Below, piece by piece: positions 28,486 to 41,720 of a stretch of 64,000 nt of DNA. This DNA is from Alphaproteobacteria bacterium (GTDB taxonomy: Bacteria > Pseudomonadota > Alphaproteobacteria > UBA9219 > RGZA01), in contig JAKFVN010000016.1 of NCBI GenBank assembly GCA_021732145.1, positions 8,457-72,456 of the forward strand. The letters are read 5' to 3'. A program made the position numbers and the translations under genes. The first letter of the stretch is position 1; the number at the start of each line of letters is the position of its first letter. Under the pieces are notes generated by a model that was not told where the DNA came from, made no database searches, and worked only from the letters and a program-made list of their open reading frames with translations.

Positions 28486-29799
28486 ATGGAAGCTGATCCA
28501 CTCCTCCTTGCCCGTATCCAGTTCGCTGCGAATATTGCATTTCATATCTTATTTCCCGTTATCACCATCGCGCTGGGCTGGATTTTACTGTTTTTCAAGC
28601 TGCGATTTTCAACAACCCAAGATAAGAAATGGATGGATGCCTATTTCTTCTGGACAAAAATTTTTGCCCTCTGCTTTGCCATTGGCGTTGTGTCCGGCAT
28701 TACCATGTCTTTCCAATTTGGCACCAATTGGCCGGGTTTCATGCAAAAAGTGGGTAATATTGCGGGGCCGTTATTGGCTTATGAAGTACTGACCGCGTTT
28801 TTTCTGGAAGCGACATTTCTTGGCATCATGCTGTTCGGGTTCAAGCGCGTGAAGCCGTGGATACATACCTTGGCCACCCTTCTTGTCGCCGGAGGCACCA
28901 CGCTTTCGGCGTTCTGGATATTGGCGCTGAACAGCTGGATGCACACGCCAACGGGTTTTGAGATGATTGATGGCAAAGCGCATGTCACCAGCTGGTTTGA
29001 AGTCGTCTTCAACCCGTCTTTCCCTTATCGTCTATCGCATATGCTGGTGGCATCCATTTTAACGGCGGCGTTTTTGGTTGCTGGCATTTCCGCCTATCGC
29101 TGGCTGCGCCAAGACCGTACACCGGCGGTGATGGCTGCCTTGCGCACCGGCGTGTTTATCGCCGCATTGTTCGTGCCCATCCAAATTCTGCTGGGTGACC
29201 TGCACGGACTGAACACGCTGCAACACCAGCCGCAAAAAATCGCCGCGATGGAAGGCTTGTGGCACACGCAAAAAGGCGCGCCGCTCGTCTTGTTTGGCCT
29301 GCCCAATGCGCAGACGAAGAAAAACGATTTGGCGATTGAAATTCCGCGCGGCGCCAGTCTGATTTTAACGCATGATTTAAACGGCGAAGTAAAAGGCATC
29401 AATGAATTTCCTGATAACCATCCACCCGTGCCGCAGGTGTTTTGGGCTTTTCGCATCATGATCGGAACAGGGCTTGCCATGCTGGGCATTTCATGGTGGG
29501 CGGCGTTCGCGCTGAAGCGCAAAATGGATATTTCGCCCGTCATCGCAAAATTATTGGTCGCGATGAGCTTTTCAGGCTGGATTGCAACCTTGGCAGGGTG
29601 GATGGTCACCGAAATTGGCCGCCAGCCCTGGCTGGTTCAGGGCATTTTAAAAACAGCAGATGCCGTGTCGGCTGTGCCCGCCCCCATGCTGGGCGCAAGC
29701 CTTGCGATGTATCTTGCCATCTACACATTCCTGCTGGGCGCATTCATTCACACATTGTTTTACTTGGCGCGTAAAGCCGGAAACAAGGAGCACGCATGA
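28486..29799 (+). CDS. cydA: Cytochrome bd-type quinol oxidase subunit I (short Q-loop, CioA-like)
   Basis: LARIQFAANIAFHILFPVITI, YEVLTAFFLEATFLGIMLFG, GWMVTEIGRQPW; 437 aa. Confidence 0.9.
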   Translation: MEADPLLLARIQFAANIAFHILFPVITIALGWILLFFKLRFSTTQDKKWMDAYFFWTKIFALCFAIGVVSGITMSFQFGTNWPGFMQKVGNIAGPLLAYEVLTAFFLEATFLGIMLFGFKRVKPWIHTLATLLVAGGTTLSAFWILALNSWMHTPTGFEMIDGKAHVTSWFEVVFNPSFPYRLSHMLVASILTAAFLVAGISAYRWLRQDRTPAVMAALRTGVFIAALFVPIQILLGDLHGLNTLQHQPQKIAAMEGLWHTQKGAPLVLFGLPNAQTKKNDLAIEIPRGASLILTHDLNGEVKGINEFPDNHPPVPQVFWAFRIMIGTGLAMLGISWWAAFALKRKMDISPVIAKLLVAMSFSGWIATLAGWMVTEIGRQPWLVQGILKTADAVSAVPAPMLGASLAMYLAIYTFLLGAFIHTLFYLARKAGNKEHA

Positions 29800-30806
29800 C
29801 CGAACTGTTTGCACATGGCACATGGTTGCCGCTTACCTTTGCAGGGTTGATGGGCTTTGCGATGCTGATTTATGCGATACTGGATGGTTATGATTTAGGC
29901 GTTGGCATGTTGCTGGCCAAAGCCAATGATGATGAAAAAGACCGGATGATTGCATCGATCGGCCCTTTCTGGGATGCGAATGAAACATGGCTGGTGCTGG
30001 GCGTTGGGTTATTGCTGGTGGCCTTTCCGGCTGCGCATGGAATTATTCTGACGAACCTTTACATGCCCGTTGCCATCATGCTGCTGGGCATTATTTTGCG
30101 CGGCGTGTCGTTTGATTTCAGGGCCAAAGTCGTCGCCGATAAAAAGCATTTCTGGAACAAGGCGTTTCTGGCGGGGTCGCTGATTACCGCTTTTTCGCAG
30201 GGCGTGATGCTGGGCTTTTATATTCTTGGCTTTGAACACAGCATGGGCGCGATTGCATTTTCAGCGCTGGTGGGGCTGTGCGTAATTGCGGGTTATTGTT
30301 TAATTGGCGCTTGCTGGCTGATTTTCAAAACTGAAAATGAACTGCAAAAAAAGGCTGTGCGCTGGGCCAAAACCGCATTGCTGGGAACGGTTGCCGGCAT
30401 TGCGCTGGTATCGCTGGCAACGCCGCTGGTCAGCCCGCGCATTTTTGCCAAATGGTTTGCCCTGCCGGATTTTTTCTGGCTGCTCCCCATCCCGTTGATG
30501 ACCGGATGCTTGGTGCTGTTGTTGTGGCGCATGCTGAACACATTGCCGCGCGAAGCAGATAAATACTGCTGGGTGCCCGTAATCCTCTGCGCTGGTATTT
30601 TCACCCTGTGCTTTTTGGGAATGGCTTACAGCTTTTACCCTTACATCGTGCCCAACCAGCTCACCATCATCGAAGCATCCTCCGCTCCTGAATCCCTGAT
30701 GGTGATTTTAATCGGGGCGCTGGTTGTGCTTCCCGTGCTGCTGGGCTACACGTTTCTTTCCTATCGCATCTTTCATGGCAAGGCCAAAGACCTCACCTAC
30801 GATTAA
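29796..30806 (+). CDS. cydB: Cytochrome bd-type quinol oxidase subunit II
   Basis: YAILDGYDLGVGML, IGPFWDANETWLV; ATGA overlap with cydA; polytopic membrane protein. Confidence 0.9.
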   Translation: MTELFAHGTWLPLTFAGLMGFAMLIYAILDGYDLGVGMLLAKANDDEKDRMIASIGPFWDANETWLVLGVGLLLVAFPAAHGIILTNLYMPVAIMLLGIILRGVSFDFRAKVVADKKHFWNKAFLAGSLITAFSQGVMLGFYILGFEHSMGAIAFSALVGLCVIAGYCLIGACWLIFKTENELQKKAVRWAKTALLGTVAGIALVSLATPLVSPRIFAKWFALPDFFWLLPIPLMTGCLVLLLWRMLNTLPREADKYCWVPVILCAGIFTLCFLGMAYSFYPYIVPNQLTIIEASSAPESLMVILIGALVVLPVLLGYTFLSYRIFHGKAKDLTYD

Positions 30807-30830: not shown

Positions 30831-30863
30831 AAAAAACCCAGCTCGGTTAGGAACTGGGTTTGA
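30831..30863 (-). terminator. Rho-independent terminator of the 775-aa Cys-rich gene (also faces cydB)
   Basis: AACCCAG / CTGGGTT 7-bp stem (30835-41 / 30854-60). On the minus strand it is followed by TTTTTTGTTTT. Confidence 0.7.
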
Positions 30864-30883
30864 TTTGTTAGGCTTGGTTTTAA

Positions 30884-33211
30884 CTAGCCGCCGCCATCGC
30901 CGCCGCCATCACCGCCGCCGCCATCACCGCCACCGTCGCCGCCGCCATCACCGCCACCGTCGCCACCACCACCGTCGCCGCCGCCGCCGTCACAGCCACA
31001 GCCATAGGTGCATGGCGGAGGTGGGGGTGGGACATAGGTGCATTGGTTCTGCTCGGTCACGCGCTCTTGGTTATCCGGGCAGGTGCGGGTTGTCGTTACA
31101 ACAATCTGGCCGCTATAGCCTGGAGGGCATGCACGTGTCGTCACATTGGTCGACGGGGTGCATACTGGCTTGCACTGATTGTCAGTGGTCACCTGATTAC
31201 GGCCTGCGCCATTATTCGAACCATCACAGATATGCGCGGTGGTCGTATTAATATACCCTTCGTAACCAGCCGGGCATGGGCCACAGGTGGTGTTGGTGGA
31301 AGGGGTGCAGGTTACGCGGCACTGATTGTCAGTGGTTACCTGTTCACGGCCTGCGCCATTATTCGAACCATCACAGATACGGGTTGTGGTGGTGTTGATA
31401 TAGCCTTCCTGACCAGCCGGGCATGGGCCGCAGGTGGTGTTGGTGGAAGGGGTGCAGGTTACGCGGCACTGGTTGTCCACGGTCACAATATCGTGGCCAG
31501 GGTCACCGCACATGCATGTATCGCATACATGCTTGGTAGTGGTGCGGATATACCCTTCCTGACCAGCCGGGCATGGGCCGTCCACATAGCTTTCGCTTGG
31601 TACGCAGGTTTGGCTGCGGCACTGGCTGGTGTCGCGGGTTACTTCACTGCGGCCTGCGCCATTGTTCGAGCCATCGCAGATGTGCTTGGTGCGAACGGTC
31701 ACGGTACCGGTCTGGCCTTCAGTGCAAGGCTCGGTTGTCACAACCTCAGAAGGCGTGCAGCTCGTGCAGGTGTTCGATACTTCTGTTTCTGCGATGGTGC
31801 AGTTGCAGGTACCTGGGTTGGTTGGGGTTGTATCGATCGTATTGGTATCACCGACAGCTTTGGTGGCCACGCCGCGGGTCGGCATGCTTTGAGCGGCTGT
31901 CTTCTTGGTGTAACCAACGGGGATGCGGCCATAGGTTGCACGAACGCCGCCATCAATACATGTACGAACCTGGCGCACGGTAATCTTGCCGGTTTGGCCG
32001 GTTGGGCAATCCTTATCCACATTGCCAAGATCCTTGGTTGGAACGCACACGCAGGTATTGGAAACCTGAAGTTCGCTCACAACGCCTTGGGTGCCAGAAC
32101 CTTCTGGGCAAGAACGGTAGTTCTTCTTGGTAATGGTGCCTTCCATGTCGCCATCTGGGCAAGCCGCGGTGAAGGTATCGCCAACTTGGCCTTCTTCACA
32201 CAGGTCGCCGGTGGTGCCTGGAGCTACGCACGTGTCGCTGATGATGTCCATCGAAGGAGCAATCGCATCGTCACCTTGGCAGATTTCGCGAACGATAACG
32301 GAAACGCTGCCAGTCCAGCCTGCTGGACGACCCATTTCCTGGCAGGTCTTGGTAGCAGAATAGGTTCTGTCAACGCAGCCCGTCACGGTTTTCCAAGACT
32401 GGTTTTGGCAGGTCATGCGGAAGTCTACGAATACAACGGTGCCAGCCCCAACGGTTGCATTGTTCGCAGGAGGAGGAATGGGTACGTTTTCAGTGCCGCT
32501 TGTGCCGCAAATCCAGCGCGCGGTGAAGGAGCCAGGGTTGGTGCCATCGCGTGGCTCAAGGTAACCAATGTCATCGCGCGAGATTGGCAATGACACGGGG
32601 GTATTGGTCACGGCAACGGTTTGACGGCCATTGGATGTGCTGGTCGAACCGCTGGTGCCGCCCGAAATCGTGCCCGATGAAGAAGAGCTGGTCGAATAGT
32701 AATAGAACCATGATGAAGAGGTGGTGGTGGTGGTGATGGTTTGCGCAAACCATTGGTTGGTGTTCGTAGAGTTCACCAATCCCTGCAAGCGCCATGAACC
32801 TGCCGAGCAGGTTTGGGTTGGAGCCTTAACGTCTGATACTTGCAAGTTGCGCGCAATACAGCAATTTGCAACGTGAACGTTCGCCGGGGTATTGGTCAGG
32901 AATGCTGTCCATTCTTCGGACGTGTTGAACGGGATGAACAATGGGCTTGTGATACCAGCAGCATCAACATAGTGACATGCGCCGTGCACGTATATTGGTG
33001 TCTTGCTGATGGTCACATCCGGTTCGAGGCGCGCGCCAGTAAAACGATCGCTGGTGATGAGCTGGCCATTTTCGCTGCGCACAGGGCACTGCGTATACGT
33101 CGTGCTGCCCTCTGTAACAGGCTTGTCGATGGAACATTGCGTTGATACTTCAGCTTGCGCTGCACCACACAGCATCAAGGAAACAATCATCGAGAGAATA
33201 ATATTGCGCAT
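30884..33211 (-). CDS. Secreted Cys-rich modular protein, 775 aa, with C-terminal (GGG[G]D)n tail; paralog of 37620-41720
   Basis: Signal peptide MRNIILSMIVSLMLCGAAQA|EV. The N-terminal ~300-aa domain is shared with the larger paralog (ACHYVDAAGITSPLFIPFNTSEEW, NCCIAR, RDDIG, ARWIC, FVDFRMTC). Seven 4-Cys modules follow, including two adjacent near-identical 49-aa units (147-nt period, 31201/31348). Then PPPPPPCTYGCGC and a 35-aa Gly/Asp tail. Confidence 0.85.
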   Translation of the reverse strand: MRNIILSMIVSLMLCGAAQAEVSTQCSIDKPVTEGSTTYTQCPVRSENGQLITSDRFTGARLEPDVTISKTPIYVHGACHYVDAAGITSPLFIPFNTSEEWTAFLTNTPANVHVANCCIARNLQVSDVKAPTQTCSAGSWRLQGLVNSTNTNQWFAQTITTTTTSSSWFYYYSTSSSSSGTISGGTSGSTSTSNGRQTVAVTNTPVSLPISRDDIGYLEPRDGTNPGSFTARWICGTSGTENVPIPPPANNATVGAGTVVFVDFRMTCQNQSWKTVTGCVDRTYSATKTCQEMGRPAGWTGSVSVIVREICQGDDAIAPSMDIISDTCVAPGTTGDLCEEGQVGDTFTAACPDGDMEGTITKKNYRSCPEGSGTQGVVSELQVSNTCVCVPTKDLGNVDKDCPTGQTGKITVRQVRTCIDGGVRATYGRIPVGYTKKTAAQSMPTRGVATKAVGDTNTIDTTPTNPGTCNCTIAETEVSNTCTSCTPSEVVTTEPCTEGQTGTVTVRTKHICDGSNNGAGRSEVTRDTSQCRSQTCVPSESYVDGPCPAGQEGYIRTTTKHVCDTCMCGDPGHDIVTVDNQCRVTCTPSTNTTCGPCPAGQEGYINTTTTRICDGSNNGAGREQVTTDNQCRVTCTPSTNTTCGPCPAGYEGYINTTTAHICDGSNNGAGRNQVTTDNQCKPVCTPSTNVTTRACPPGYSGQIVVTTTRTCPDNQERVTEQNQCTYVPPPPPPCTYGCGCDGGGGDGGGGDGGGDGGGDGGGDGGGGDGGGDGGG

Positions 33212-33507: not shown

Positions 33508-34467
33508 TTAGGCGGTGGGTGGAAGCGGTTGCGCGCGACGTTGCGCAATTAGTTGCGGCGTAACGCCCGCAACATCATCAAGGAATCTATTCGCAAGCTG
33601 TTTGCGTTCATCCGATGAATTCGCGCGAAGGAATGCAACTTTTGGTTTTCCGTCTTGAATATATCCCAGCGTCAATACGAATACGCCATTTGGAAATTGC
33701 TGTGGCACGCCGCTGTTTGGCGGCAGTTTGTGAAATTGCGATCGATCAAGCGTTCCTGTCTTTGCAAAAAAGACCTCGCCATTGCGCGGCGCGGCCGGGT
33801 TTTGTATGGCGCGATCCGCCAGATAACGGTGTGTCGTATGCTGCGGATTGGCGGGGCTTGAAAGCTGGCTCAGCGTTCTTCCATTATCCAGCTTATACAG
33901 ATACTCCATCAGATGCGCGATATGCAGTGGCGATGCCTGCGATGTGCCGTGACGCAATTTCGTATCCGCAATGCCGGATGTATCGCTGATGCGCGATCCC
34001 GCGATACCCAATTCTTTTTGGTACTTGGCAAGCTCCGCGCGGTAGGTTTCATAAAAACGCTGCACGCTGGGGTTCATCGTATTGGAAAGATGATTGTCAT
34101 TGCCGCGGTTCAGCACGCCGCCCTGCATCGTCATCGGGCGAAAATTCGCCGCAAAGGTATTCGCACCCGGATAATTCAACGCACGCGCCACTTCGACAAT
34201 GGTCGCGTCATTATGCGATTGGCTCATCATGCGCGTGAGACGCCCCATGTTTGCCTGCACGTATTCAACGCCACGCGCGCGCGCAATCAGCGCCAGCGCG
34301 GCGATTTTGGTATTGGATGATAAATGGCCAAGGGTATTTACATCGTGGCCCTGTTCCGGGCGGCTTGAATGGATGTCATAGACAAGATGCTGGTGCCGCC
34401 CCAAAATACGATTTTGTGGCAAAGGTTCGTTATGCACACTTGGCAATATCCTGCTGACCATCAGCAT
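33508..34467 (-). CDS. Hypothetical protein with SxxK / KTG motifs (possible penicillin-binding/beta-lactamase-fold serine hydrolase)
   Basis: LSSNTKIAALAL (S51-x-x-K54), SHND (84-87), FFAKTGTLD (K236-T-G). The motif spacing is atypical for S11 peptidases or class A enzymes and no signal peptide is evident, so the call is weak. Confidence 0.35.
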   Translation of the reverse strand: MLMVSRILPSVHNEPLPQNRILGRHQHLVYDIHSSRPEQGHDVNTLGHLSSNTKIAALALIARARGVEYVQANMGRLTRMMSQSHNDATIVEVARALNYPGANTFAANFRPMTMQGGVLNRGNDNHLSNTMNPSVQRFYETYRAELAKYQKELGIAGSRISDTSGIADTKLRHGTSQASPLHIAHLMEYLYKLDNGRTLSQLSSPANPQHTTHRYLADRAIQNPAAPRNGEVFFAKTGTLDRSQFHKLPPNSGVPQQFPNGVFVLTLGYIQDGKPKVAFLRANSSDERKQLANRFLDDVAGVTPQLIAQRRAQPLPPTA

Positions 34468-36691: not shown

Positions 36692-36815
36692 ATAAACGTG
36701 GTTAACAAGGCAGGGCTGGTTGTGCCGTAAGGCACAGAAGCATCGCCTAACATATAAACGTGGTTAACAAGGCAGGGCTGGTTGTGCCGTAAGGCACAGA
36801 AGCATCGCCTAACAT
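36692..36815. repeat. Perfect tandem duplication (2 x 62 bp), each unit containing one GGTTG-hairpin repeat
   Basis: ATAAACGTGGTTAACAAGGCAGGGCTGGTTGTGCCGTAAGGCACAGAAGCATCGCCTAACAT occurs at 36692-36753 and again at 36754-36815. Stem TGTGCC/GGCACA with GTAA loop. Confidence 0.9.
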
Positions 36816-36833
36816 ATATATGTGTGTACCCAA

Positions 36834-37570: not shown

Positions 37571-37600
37571 CAAAAAACCCCGGCATTTCTACCGGGGTTT
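37571..37600 (-). terminator. Rho-independent terminator of the 1366-aa Cys-rich gene
   Basis: CCCCGG-CATTTCTA-CCGGGG (37578-37597). On the minus strand it is followed by TTTTTTG. Confidence 0.75.
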
Positions 37601-37619
37601 TTGAATTTGTCTGGTCTAA

Positions 37620-40600
37620 CTAGCCGCCGCCATCGCCGCCGCCGTCACCGCCGCCGCCATCTCCTCCGCCGTCGCCGCCACCATCACCACCGCCGCCGTC
37701 ACCACCGCCGCCATCGCCACCTACCACGATAAAGGTGCAGCTATTGCCAATGGTTTCTTCGTTAATCAGACCCGATGGGCAAACGCGCACATTGCGCTTG
37801 GTGATGATACCCATATATCCGGGCTGGCATGCCGCGGTGAAGGTATCGCCCACTTGGCCTGGGTTACAGCTGATAATCGGCGTGCAGGTATTGCTTACCG
37901 TTTCTTCGGTAATCGTGCCAGACGGGCAGGAACGCACATTCCGCTTGGTGATTACGCCGGCATACCCTTGCTGGCAGGGCGCGGTGAAGGTATCACCCAC
38001 CTGGCCCGGGGTACAGGCGTTCACGCACGTGTTGCTGATTTCTTCTTCCACTTCATTGCCGGATGGGCATTGGCGCACACGGTGCAATGTGATGATGCCG
38101 GTTTGGCCAGTGGGGCATGCACGTGTGTATGGCTCGCACGTCGCGCCGGGAACGCAGGTGGCACGGCACTGGTTGTCCGTGGTTACCGTGGTGCGGCCAG
38201 CGCCATTATTACTGCCATCGCAGACATGCGCGGTGGTGGTACGAACATAGCCTGACTGACCTTGCGGGCATGCCGCATCGGTATAGTTCGATGACGGCGT
38301 GCAATTCACGGTGCATCGGTTGTCGGTCGTAACAATGTCACGGCCCGCGCCATTGTTCGAACCATCGCAGACATGGCGGGTACGAGTGCGAATAACTCCC
38401 GATTGACCGGATGGGCATGCGCTTTCCACCACATCGTTCGATGGGGTGCATGCCTCATGGCAGGCTGGGCCAGTTACCGTCACGACATCACGGCCCGCGC
38501 CATTATTTGAACCATCGCAGACGCGCTCCGTGCGCGTGGTGCGACCGCCAATTTGACCCACGGGACAGTTTTCAAGCACCGCCGTTGCGCCCGGCGTGCA
38601 AACGACGCGACACGCTTCGCCAGTTACCGTCACGACATCGCGGCCCGCGCCATTATTTGAACCATCGCATACGCGTTCCGTGCGCGTGGTGCGACCGCCT
38701 GTTGAACCCGGTGCGCAATCTTCGATCATGACTGAAGTGTTTGGCGTGCACGCCGTGCGGCAGTGATTTTTTTCCGTGACTACATCGCGGCCCGCGCCGT
38801 TATTCGAACCATCGCAGACACGGCTGGTCTTCACGGTGATTTCGCCGGTTTGGCCGGTTGGGCATGCGCGGGAAGTGGTTGTTACCGCTGGCGTGCAAGC
38901 GGAGCGGCATTGATTATCCGTTGTAATCACATCACGGCCTGCGCCGTTATTGCTGCCATCGCACACGCGGGTGGTGGTGGTGCGAACAACCCCGGTCTGG
39001 CCCGATGGGCATTGCGCATCCGACGTGGTGCTGCCCGCAACGCAAGCGGAGGTGCAGGTGTTGCTTAGTTCGCGGATTTCAATGTCTCCCGATGGGCACA
39101 CGCGGAAGTTCTGACGCGTAATCACGCCGGTCTGGCCGGTCGGGCATGGCGATGTGTAGGGGTTGCAGACAGCGCCCGGCGTGCAGGATGTGGCACATTG
39201 GTTGGTGGTTGTCACCACGGTGCGTCCCGCGCCGCTATTGCTGCCATCGCACAGATGCTGGCGGCGCGTCACGATTTGCCCGGTCTGGCCCGATGGGCAA
39301 GCCGAGCTCGTCGATGTATCCGACGGCGTGCAGGTGGTTATCGGGCGGCAATAGCTTTCGCGGGTGACAATGTCGCGTTCGCCGCCATCAAACCACTTCA
39401 GCAAGGCGTTGTTGCCGGCATCGTACTCATTATCACAGCCTTCCCAGCCGCGCAGCCCCATGCGGCTATGGCATACATGCGTGGTGATGACCTTGATGTA
39501 CCCTTCCTGACCGGCCGGGCAAGCTTCCTGCGTCACGTTGCGTGAAGGCACGCACCCTGAACCGCCGCTGCATGTGTTTTGCGTGGTGGTGACAATGCGG
39601 CCCGCGCCGTTATTGCTGCCATCGCAGACACGGGTGTTGATGGTGGTGATCTGGCCTGTCTTGCCAGCGCCGCAATCCACCGCTGAACGGCTTACCTCGC
39701 CAGGGACGCATCCCGTTGTCGCAGTGCAGCCATTGCTGACCACTTCCTCGGAAATCACACCCGATGGGCATGCACGCACATTGCGCTTGGTAATCGTGCC
39801 TGTCTGGCCCGACGGGCAAGCGGCGGTGAAAGTCTGGCCCACCTGGCCCGGCACGCATGCTTGCACCGTGCAGGTGTTGGAAACCTCAACGTCGGAAATC
39901 ACGCCCGATGGACATGCGCGAACATGCTTCTTGGTAATCACACCGCTTTGGCCTGATGGGCATTCCAGCGCATAGGTATCCCCCACCTGCCCGGCAACAC
40001 AAGCCTGGCTGCACGTGTTGGAAACCTCTTCCTCGGTAATCACACCTGATGGGCATGCGCGAATGCGCTTCTTGGTGATGAGGCCGCTTTGACCATTCGG
40101 GCACGTCACCGCAAAGGTCTGGCCCACTTGGCCAGCACGGCATCCCGGAACGCAGGTATCGCTTACGACTTCAACAACCGTTGTGCCTGCCGGGCATTGA
40201 CGCACATTGCGCTTGGTGATGAGGCCTGTTTTGCCGACGGGGCATTCTTGGGTGAACGTGTCGCCATAGGGGCCAGGCACGCATGGCGCAGCTGCGCAGG
40301 TTTTTGTCACATCGGTTTCAGATGTGGTGCAGGAACAAAAGCCCCAAGGCTGAATGGTATCGCCCGATGGCATTGCCTGAACGCAGGTCTTGGTTTGGCG
40401 CACAGTCCACGTTCCCGTCTGACCCGTTGGGCATGTCTTGCTCACATTGCCCAAATCGGTGGTTGGCGGGCACACGCAGGTATTGGAAACCAGCGTCTTG
40501 GTAATCACGCCGTTTGCACTGCTGCCATCCGGGCAGGTGCGCATGTTTTTGTAAACCGCAGTACCGGTGAAATTTTCACCGCAGCTTTCGGTGAAGGTAT

Positions 40601-41720
40601 CACCCACTTGGCCAGGCGTGCAGGTAACAGCAACGCATTGGCTGGTATCGTCGGTAACAACATCACGGCCAGCGCCATTATTTGAACCATCGCAGACGCG
40701 CGCAGTGGTGCGCGTGATAGTGCCAGTAAAGCCGGTCGCGCACGCAACGGTGGTTGTGCTTGATGATGGCGTGCAGGTGACGGGCGCACGGCATGTATCG
40801 ATCACAACTTGCGATGTGACATTGCCCGACGGGCAATTCTTGGTGTTCAAAACACCAACCGTGCCAACCCATGTGGCGGGATGGTCATTTTGCGAGCAGG
40901 TGCGCGTTGACGCGGTGACCGTTTCAACGCAGGTGTTTGGATCAATCGATGTCCAGTTGCTGCTACGGCATTGCATCCTGAATTCGGTGAATGCGATATC
41001 GCCGATTTCGCCATTAATCACGCCAACGGTGCCGCCGATAATGTCGGTGGTGCGCGCCGTCGTATCCGCGCCGGTGCCGCGCGGCGCAACGCCCATGCAC
41101 TGCCAGCGCGCGAGATAGGTTTCGCTGACGCGCGCGCCAGCCGGGAATGTTGAGCCAATATCATCGCGTTCAACCGGGAACAGGGTAATTGGGTAATCGG
41201 GGTCTTCGGTATTGCCAGTTTCAAGCACGATGGCTGAAGCCGGTGCCTGGCTGACAGGGCGCGCGATATAGGTGGTGGAGCTGGTGGATGCAACCAAGCC
41301 CTGCAAATTCCAACGGCCATGATTACAGCTATCGGCTGGCTTTGGAATATCTGAAACGCGCATCACGCGCGGCACGCAGCATTGCGCAACATTGGTGCCG
41401 GTTGGATGGTTGGCAATGAATGCGTTCCATTCGGTCGAGGTGTTAAATGGAACGAAGATGGATGCGGTGATGCCGCGCGCATCCACATAACGGCATACAT
41501 TATTGATGTTAATCGGCGTGCCGCTCAGGATATTGGTCGATTGCAAGCGCGCGGAATTGAAACCGGCATTGGGCAGGAAATTATTTCCGCCGCCCACGGG
41601 ACAGGTGGCATCAGCTCCCCCAATTGTTGCCTCATCAAGCGTGCAGGTCGCGGCATAGGATACATGCGGCATGCAAAGGAACAGGAACGCAACGAGCAAA
41701 GCTAGAACAGATTTACGCAT
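37620..41720 (-). CDS. Giant secreted Cys-rich modular protein (~1366 aa from ATG 41720) with C-terminal (GGG[G]D)n tail
   Basis: Signal peptide MRKSVLALLVAFLFLCMPHVSYA|ATC (the track ORF starts 20 codons upstream at 41780). The N-terminal domain is homologous to the 775-aa paralog. It is followed by 20 consecutive four-Cys modules (10 with CDGSNNGAGR, 9 with GQVGDTFT..ITKRNVR.CPSG..SNTC, 1 linker module). I count ~98 Cys. The 33-aa Gly/Asp tail ends ...GGDGGG*. Confidence 0.85.
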   Translation of the reverse strand: MRKSVLALLVAFLFLCMPHVSYAATCTLDEATIGGADATCPVGGGNNFLPNAGFNSARLQSTNILSGTPININNVCRYVDARGITASIFVPFNTSTEWNAFIANHPTGTNVAQCCVPRVMRVSDIPKPADSCNHGRWNLQGLVASTSSTTYIARPVSQAPASAIVLETGNTEDPDYPITLFPVERDDIGSTFPAGARVSETYLARWQCMGVAPRGTGADTTARTTDIIGGTVGVINGEIGDIAFTEFRMQCRSSNWTSIDPNTCVETVTASTRTCSQNDHPATWVGTVGVLNTKNCPSGNVTSQVVIDTCRAPVTCTPSSSTTTVACATGFTGTITRTTARVCDGSNNGAGRDVVTDDTSQCVAVTCTPGQVGDTFTESCGENFTGTAVYKNMRTCPDGSSANGVITKTLVSNTCVCPPTTDLGNVSKTCPTGQTGTWTVRQTKTCVQAMPSGDTIQPWGFCSCTTSETDVTKTCAAAPCVPGPYGDTFTQECPVGKTGLITKRNVRQCPAGTTVVEVVSDTCVPGCRAGQVGQTFAVTCPNGQSGLITKKRIRACPSGVITEEEVSNTCSQACVAGQVGDTYALECPSGQSGVITKKHVRACPSGVISDVEVSNTCTVQACVPGQVGQTFTAACPSGQTGTITKRNVRACPSGVISEEVVSNGCTATTGCVPGEVSRSAVDCGAGKTGQITTINTRVCDGSNNGAGRIVTTTQNTCSGGSGCVPSRNVTQEACPAGQEGYIKVITTHVCHSRMGLRGWEGCDNEYDAGNNALLKWFDGGERDIVTRESYCRPITTCTPSDTSTSSACPSGQTGQIVTRRQHLCDGSNSGAGRTVVTTTNQCATSCTPGAVCNPYTSPCPTGQTGVITRQNFRVCPSGDIEIRELSNTCTSACVAGSTTSDAQCPSGQTGVVRTTTTRVCDGSNNGAGRDVITTDNQCRSACTPAVTTTSRACPTGQTGEITVKTSRVCDGSNNGAGRDVVTEKNHCRTACTPNTSVMIEDCAPGSTGGRTTRTERVCDGSNNGAGRDVVTVTGEACRVVCTPGATAVLENCPVGQIGGRTTRTERVCDGSNNGAGRDVVTVTGPACHEACTPSNDVVESACPSGQSGVIRTRTRHVCDGSNNGAGRDIVTTDNRCTVNCTPSSNYTDAACPQGQSGYVRTTTAHVCDGSNNGAGRTTVTTDNQCRATCVPGATCEPYTRACPTGQTGIITLHRVRQCPSGNEVEEEISNTCVNACTPGQVGDTFTAPCQQGYAGVITKRNVRSCPSGTITEETVSNTCTPIISCNPGQVGDTFTAACQPGYMGIITKRNVRVCPSGLINEETIGNSCTFIVVGGDGGGGDGGGGDGGGDGGGDGGGGDGGGDGGG

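Follow-up and report, generated by a model that had tools for sequence, protein, structure and literature searches.

RTX nonapeptide repeats (GGxGxDxUx; Pfam HemolysinCabind) form acidic, Ca2+-binding, glycine- and aspartate-rich tandem arrays near the C-terminus of extracellular Gram-negative proteins, and other acidic, low-complexity, disordered tails act through their composition, as entropic bristles or as polyanionic tails that bind cations. The LPXTG/sortase, PEP-CTERM/exosortase and GlyGly-CTERM/rhombosortase signals are found at the extreme C-terminus of secreted proteins, while FrpC's self-processing module (SPM), which according to the literature is found in RTX proteins only, cuts an Asp-Pro bond and forms an Asp anhydride that links the freed Asp to a lysine (PMC7078468). 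Here we analysed a 64,000-nt stretch (referred to below as the window) of contig JAKFVN010000016.1 from an alphaproteobacterium (assembly GCA_021732145.1), which encodes two Cys-rich repeat proteins, one big and one small, that both end in a glycine-aspartate tail of (GGGD)n type. Examination of the literature yielded nothing relevant on GGGD or glycine-aspartate tails.

The tails share features with each of these systems. Like RTX arrays they are Gly/Asp-rich tandem repeats near the C-terminus of extracellular-looking proteins, but their period is 4-5 residues rather than 9, the GGxGxD register is not readable in them, and they have no aliphatic position 8 and thus no aliphatic residue for a beta-roll core. 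In addition, RTX proteins use type I secretion, whereas the window proteins have a Sec-like N-terminus (judged by eye) and no type I secretion system (T1SS) genes lie within ~15 kb. As with the sorting signals, the tails occupy the extreme C-terminus and are found on both paralogues of a genome, but on reading the sequence they have no signature motif, hydrophobic helix or basic cluster, no cognate sortase-, exosortase- or rhombosortase-type gene is present within the same ~15 kb, and only one family carries the tail in the two relatives' genomes searched whole for the terminal motif. The FrpC SPM is Ca2+-dependent, relies on Asp chemistry and, in distant homologues of the window proteins, has the same C-terminal position as the tails; however, it is a folded module of 177 residues with EF-hand-like loops, and has no sequence in common with the window tails. 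The compositional tails, like (GGGD)n, are low-complexity, predicted disordered and highly negative, and their composition is kept while the sequence drifts, as is seen here in deeper lineages. They differ in that the tails described here show exact GGGD periodicity, an Asp count of 6-8, avoidance of the GGG codon and repeated exchange between paralogues.

Selectively maintained tails on two old paralogues

Translated from the minus strand, the big tail reads GGDGGGGDGGGGDGGGDGGGDGGGGDGGGDGGG (37620-37721 including the stop codon) and the small tail DGGGGDGGGGDGGGDGGGDGGGDGGGGDGGGDGGG (30884-30991 including the stop codon). A preliminary description of this DNA had reported that both Cys-rich proteins end in (G3-4D)n, and this was borne out, with no other such runs in the six frames of the window. 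Also correct was its observation that both tails lack a hydrophobic segment and an aromatic residue at the end, as all 33-35 residues are Gly or Asp and the net charge is approximately -7 to -8. The only hydrophobic stretch next to the big tail is the four-residue FIVV that directly precedes it, and an (I/V)3-4 strand lies ahead of the tail in most members. At the DNA level the repeat recurs every 12 nt, with a higher-order period of 39 nt. In a full-length AlphaFold2 model of the small protein, residues 731-775, which comprise a poly-Pro linker and the tail that follows it, have a pLDDT of ~34 and are without secondary structure, and the tails are therefore predicted to be intrinsically disordered.

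In addition to the loci found through the tail motif, we collected further syntenic loci (L099, L100, L101/L102, L103, L104 and L105) using homologues of a conserved 319-aa open reading frame (ORF) that lies between the paralogues. Across seven syntenic genomes a Gly/Asp tail of 26-54 aa was present in 14/14 complete 3' ends of big and small genes. Within the subclade that contains the window organism the tails are regular (GGGD)n with an Asp count of 6-8, and in ten such regular tails a single non-Gly/Asp interruption was observed (YS, in the big protein of L099). The tails of L103 and L104 are more irregular, with T, S or A inserted, a conserved Cys in the motif DGGGCGDGG, and Asp at the end; more generally, the C-terminal residue varies by genome, with either GGG or GGD preceding the stop codon.

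Comparison of the regular tails, among orthologues and paralogues alike, showed that ~50% of codons differ and that every difference is synonymous, with 0 replacements, while identity across the protein bodies is only 67-81%. None of the 361 glycine codons in the tails is GGG, compared with 5.7% in the gene bodies (~20 expected; P ~7e-10), and this absence points to avoidance of G homopolymers. Where the last Cys module has been swapped among big orthologues, both the C-x-I-V-V junction and the tail that follow it have been retained. Since the codon differences are all synonymous and GGG is avoided, it is the peptide that is selected and not the DNA or RNA. The suggestion of selection on the 3' end made in the preliminary description is thus upheld, at the level of the peptide, by saturated synonymous sites without replacements, the avoidance of GGG and the presence of the tail in all 14 genes. 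These results show that the tails are translated and selectively maintained, and that they characterise two old paralogues throughout the clade.

It had also been proposed that this imperfect repeat could vary in length by slippage. We detected no such variation at present, as four assemblies of the window organism, derived from different runs, have the same tail DNA in the big gene. Between species of the regular-tail subclade there are indels of whole units, giving tails of 26-35 aa with 6-8 Asp. Two Logan contigs, one of the window organism (L097) and one of a relative (L105), begin inside a tail, which looks like an effect of the repeat on assembly. A separate difference was seen in the ENA assembly ERZ1079237 (k127_68826), where Cys740 is replaced by Gly directly before the tail of the small protein (window 30992-30994, minus strand); this is one of only two differences from that assembly in 12.5 kb.

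Shared 3' ends and exchange between the paralogues

The 3' ends of the two window genes are also alike in their DNA. A 45-nt string with one ambiguous position, R, had been given as common to both, and it occurs exactly at the two sites listed in Table 1, with R being A in one gene and G in the other, while 0/100 shuffled sequences matched; the longest exact run common to the two genes is 27 nt. Each gene is followed by a strong stem-loop and U-run, with the stems beginning 17 and 22 nt after the stop codon. In this respect the terminators noted earlier are real, but they do not form part of the tract shared between the genes, as their sequences differ. Because they differ in this way, and each is conserved with its own orthologues, the near-identity of the two genes ends ~3 nt past the stop codon, with any likeness beyond that point being ambiguous. 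The 3' untranslated regions (UTRs) and terminators are distantly alike between the gene classes and conserved within each class, and from this pattern the likeness of these ordinary terminators is one of paralogous ancestry kept orthologously and not of a recently shared tract.

In a neighbour-joining tree of the shared N-terminal domain (N-domain), the proteins separate into a big clade and a small clade. Both clades include a protein of EB059, the earliest-branching genome, and the duplication is therefore older than the sampled genomes. In contrast to this deep division, the type of tail (Gly/Asp or Ser/Ala) and its irregularities track the genome and not the orthology group. Both tails of EB059 are Ser/Ala-rich, with 3' ends that are alike; both tails of L100 contain a G5 unit; and in L103 there is a 77-nt exact identity inside the tails, with adjoining modules that are ~65-70% identical (estimated by eye from the alignment). 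The two window tails have in common the irregular glycine-run pattern 4,4,...,4,3,3, and at the end of the big tail 12/14 codons are shared with the small gene of the window and with that of L099, compared with at most 9 with any big orthologue.

The preliminary description had offered gene conversion as one reason for the shared 3' DNA. Judged from these alignments, conversion between the paralogues recurs in the clade, where the 77-nt tract of L103, the G5 units of L100 and the Ser/Ala tails of EB059 support it, and in L103 it is demonstrable. In the window pair itself the case is moderate only, being plausible but not proven; the better evidence here is the shared irregular 4,4,...,4,3,3 pattern together with the small-like end of the big tail. 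Since that end resembles small-type tails more than those of any big orthologue, the 45-nt stretch in the big gene is suggested as a candidate small-to-big transfer. We also considered the TAG stop codon of the window big gene as a marker of the small type, and rejected it because stop codons vary within both classes.

The protein family, its distribution and its surroundings

Both proteins have a common layout, in which a signal-peptide-like N-terminus is followed by an N-domain of ~310 aa and then by Cys-rich modules of ~45 residues each. The N-termini consist of MRK or MRN, a hydrophobic core and then AQA or SYA, and are kept across orthologues (read as signal peptides by eye). Searches against Pfam gave no family at E <= 1 for either window protein, and the sole NCBIfam match of the pair was a chance one to ribosomal protein S28e. 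When the small protein and a 6-sequence profile served as queries in word-indexed protein searches, three homologues only were obtained, and it was an exhaustive profile search that revealed a family, with the N-domain in ~30 representative clusters and 29 proteins at E <= 1e-30. Alignments showed the invariant C, W, D and R columns of the N-domain in both window proteins, and the modules of the family carry the signature CPxGQxG...CDGSNNGAGR. The two paralogues are accordingly members of a previously undescribed family in uncultured Alphaproteobacteria, with N-termini that are signal-peptide-like. The AlphaFold2 model of the N-domain is confident (pLDDT 89, pTM 0.80), and Foldseek searches of the PDB gave a neighbour neither for it, with a best E of 0.29, nor for the whole small-protein model; on the basis of this model the domain may be a new fold.

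Members of the family vary in the number of Cys modules and have very different C-termini. A tandem repeat of 147 nt x 2.1 with 90% identity in the small gene (31172-31477, minus strand) marks a recently duplicated Cys module, and because of this repeat, and because the type of the last module before the tail differs between big orthologues, we conclude that the modules are shuffled. At the position of the tail, distant members have other acidic Gly/Asp/aromatic tails or an FrpC-type module. The latter is absent from both window proteins; four proteins (P0002, P0005, P0011 and P0030) end in an SPM homologue, with P0002 matching PDB 6sjw at E = 1e-23 and the other three assigned from a profile match and a Ser-Pro-Leu-Val junction. 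All four are Cys-repeat proteins, and three of them also have the N-domain. At the junction these homologues have Ser-Pro, compared with Asp-Pro in FrpC.

Table 1. Positions in the window of the two Cys-rich repeat protein genes, their parts and associated features.
Feature	Position	Strand	Remarks
Big Cys-rich repeat protein gene	37620..41720	-	1366 aa from the ATG that aligns with orthologues
Signal-peptide-like N-terminus, big protein	41652-41720	-	
Shared N-domain, big protein	40716-41654	-	
Gly/Asp tail, big protein	37623..37721	-	33 codons, 7 Asp; glycine runs 2,4,4,3,3,4,3,3
45-nt shared stretch, big gene	37617..37661	-	last 13 codons, TAG stop and TTA
Intrinsic terminator, big gene	37573..37602	-	z = -3.8; conserved with the big-gene terminators of L023 and L009
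Conserved ORF	33508..34467	-	317-319 aa; between the paralogues in all syntenic genomes
Small Cys-rich repeat protein gene	30884..33211	-	775 aa
Signal-peptide-like N-terminus, small protein	33152-33211	-	
Shared N-domain, small protein	32207-33148	-	
Gly/Asp tail, small protein	30887..30991	-	35 codons, 8 Asp; glycine runs 4,4,3,3,3,4,3,3
45-nt shared stretch, small gene	30881..30925	-	matches the big-gene stretch with one mismatch
Intrinsic terminator, small gene	30834..30861	-	z = -5.4; conserved with the small-gene terminators of L017, L099 and L100

To follow the tail beyond the locus, one genome per prokaryotic species was scanned for DNA encoding GGGDGGGDGGG and a stop codon, using a pattern that also admits TGG. 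A motif search had been proposed in the preliminary description, with a view to finding co-occurring genes such as a candidate sorting enzyme; the present scan returned 27 stretches only, of which three belong to the Cys-rich family, and no sorting enzyme was found within ~15 kb of the locus. The family matches were a big orthologue (L009) and two neighbouring blocks (L017 and L023) of a single contig collinear with the window. Other matches with plausible ORFs fell on proteins without relation to the family, among them one with a CN_hydrolase domain, GerD and GPP34; their Pfam families suggest different cellular locations. In two relatives searched whole (GTDB representative genomes) only the Cys-rich family matched the terminal motif. 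A scan of metagenome contigs for the motif gave 60 stretches, none of them from the Cys-rich family, and a search for related loci among metagenome contigs found none. A separate, recurrent tail type was also seen in the motif scans, in Actinomycetota loci (L005, L010, L024, L026, L046 and others), where Gly/Asp/Trp/Phe-rich tails (...GGGDGGGWDGGGGDWGGGG...DFGGF before the stop codon) follow a hydrophobic segment.

For the conserved ORF that separates the paralogues we found 12 homologues, none of them annotated; the ORF shows no Pfam or PDB match, no enzyme signature and no link to the tail that we could find. A reading of it as a penicillin-binding-protein-like processing enzyme, based on SxxK and KTG motifs, was dropped as Pfam, PDB and the annotation of its homologues did not support it. 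Elsewhere in the window, cydAB (cytochrome bd; 28486-30806) lies between a heparinase-II/III-like gene and the small Cys-rich gene. The collinear sister contig L017, and likewise L099, L100, L103 and L104, have no cydAB there, an indel of ~2.4 kb. Downstream of the big gene, the intergenic gap that separates two small ORFs contains a perfect 62-bp x 2 tandem direct repeat (36692-36818), and an antisense ORF is present at 30865-31251.

Possible roles of the tail

The explanation that we favour, with a probability of roughly 55%, is that selection maintains the tail as a disordered, polyanionic extension that tethers the protein or binds cations, and that the likeness of the two genes in their DNA comes from ancestry, selection and conversion together. 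In this scheme the 3' end in its entirety, from the tail through the 3' UTR to the terminator, descends from the old duplication, with purifying selection on the peptide and a codon bias to GGC and GGT, away from GGG, adding to the likeness, and with episodic conversion acting on top of these, probably from small to big over the tail and the last ~40 nt in the window lineage. The tail itself would act via its composition and not through a fixed fold, as a flexible polyanionic tether or spacer that may bind divalent cations (Ca2+ or Mg2+), and it could either anchor the disulfide-rich ectoprotein to an anionic surface, of the cell envelope or of a mineral, or maintain the protein in solution. 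An acidic, cation-related function of the C-terminus fits because distant members of the family carry acidic tails or the Ca2+-dependent FrpC-type module. Binding of Ca2+ by the tail is plausible.

Several observations weigh against this explanation. In EB059 the tails of both paralogues are Ser/Ala-rich and uncharged, so negative charge is not universally required, and several members of the family are without any tail. The strict GGGD periodicity, maintained over saturated synonymous sites, also exceeds the order that a compositional function needs, which hints at a more specific role. As for the conversion component, identity at 12/14 codons is reached by 5/45 tail pairs, which can be put down to GGC bias and shared ancestry, and the window pair is not exceptional in this regard; with four other pairs of the 45 equal to it, the near-identity of the last 13-14 codons was downgraded as strong proof of conversion.

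A more specific role might be that of a tag for recognition, processing or covalent attachment, the main rival reading, which we consider unlikely. It could take the form of a new sorting signal at the C-terminus whose partner enzyme is unlinked, or of a reactive Asp-Gly-rich end, possibly together with the hydrophobic strand, that is cross-linked to the envelope or to a subunit in analogy to the clip-and-link reaction of FrpC. The strong purifying selection on the peptide with its exact periodicity, the (I/V)3-4 strand before the tail in most members, the conserved Cys of the L103 and L104 tails, and the equal tail type of both paralogues in each genome, as expected with a common partner, would all suit a tag, as would the presence at the end of P0002, P0005 and P0011 of a homologue of the module whose Asp anhydride links to lysines in FrpC (PMC7078468). 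However, the tail is devoid of transmembrane segments, basic clusters and known sorting motifs, its C-terminal residue is not conserved, the SPM-like homologues lack the Asp-Pro of FrpC, and the 319-aa neighbour is without an enzyme signature. The proposal of a novel sorting signal in the preliminary description, in particular, is not supported, as the surrounding ~15 kb contain no partner gene (sortase, exosortase, rhombosortase or T1SS) and the motif is confined to one family in the two relatives searched whole but elsewhere ends unrelated proteins whose families (CN_hydrolase, GerD and GPP34) suggest different locations. More doubtful still is the particular form in which (GGGD)n is a new C-terminal tag whose Asp-Gly units, perhaps with the I/V strand, attach the Cys-rich proteins covalently or via Ca2+; by analogy, its chemistry could be for example a succinimide or an isopeptide, its target the envelope or another subunit, and its job that of the FrpC module in distant homologues.

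A functionless low-complexity expansion, in which slippage has made a coding microsatellite that is tolerated at the C-terminus, is quite improbable and largely contradicted. The 12-nt and 39-nt periods, the unit indels between species (26-35 aa), the T, S, A and C inserted in deeper lineages, the full switch to Ser/Ala in EB059 and the sporadic occurrence of similar tails on unrelated proteins are what it would predict, but the tail has no replacements despite saturated synonymous change and only the one YS interruption in 10 regular tails, it is kept in 14/14 genes with a narrow Asp count and through the swap of the adjoining module, GGG is avoided, and four assemblies agree in its DNA. It is highly improbable that the tail is a degenerate beta-roll of the RTX type that binds Ca2+, or a type I secretion signal: a Gly/Asp-rich C-terminal tandem repeat on an extracellular-looking Gram-negative protein, with an SPM in distant homologues, does recall RTX proteins, but the differences in period, aliphatic position and GGxGxD register, the missing Pfam and NCBIfam matches, the Sec-like N-terminus without T1SS genes nearby and the unstructured tail in the AlphaFold2 model all oppose it. 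The least probable account places the function in the DNA or RNA itself, for example in a structured 3' part of the mRNA, a site of regulation or some antisense product, with an incidental peptide. It would accommodate the GC-rich repetitive region directly upstream of the terminator and the antisense ORF, but it is contradicted by the codon comparison, in which third positions are randomised and amino acids fixed, in orthologues and paralogues, the opposite of nucleotide-level constraint.

The tails provide a clean natural case of a trivial-looking low-complexity sequence under strong peptide-level selection, including a codon choice against G homopolymers, in which gene conversion keeps the tail matched between two old paralogues. 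The family to which they belong is one of uncharacterised exported, disulfide-rich repeat proteins in a poorly known group of Alphaproteobacteria. Should the tail prove to serve for cation-dependent anchoring or as a tag for attachment, it would represent a very simple new module for bacterial surface-protein biology and for protein engineering.

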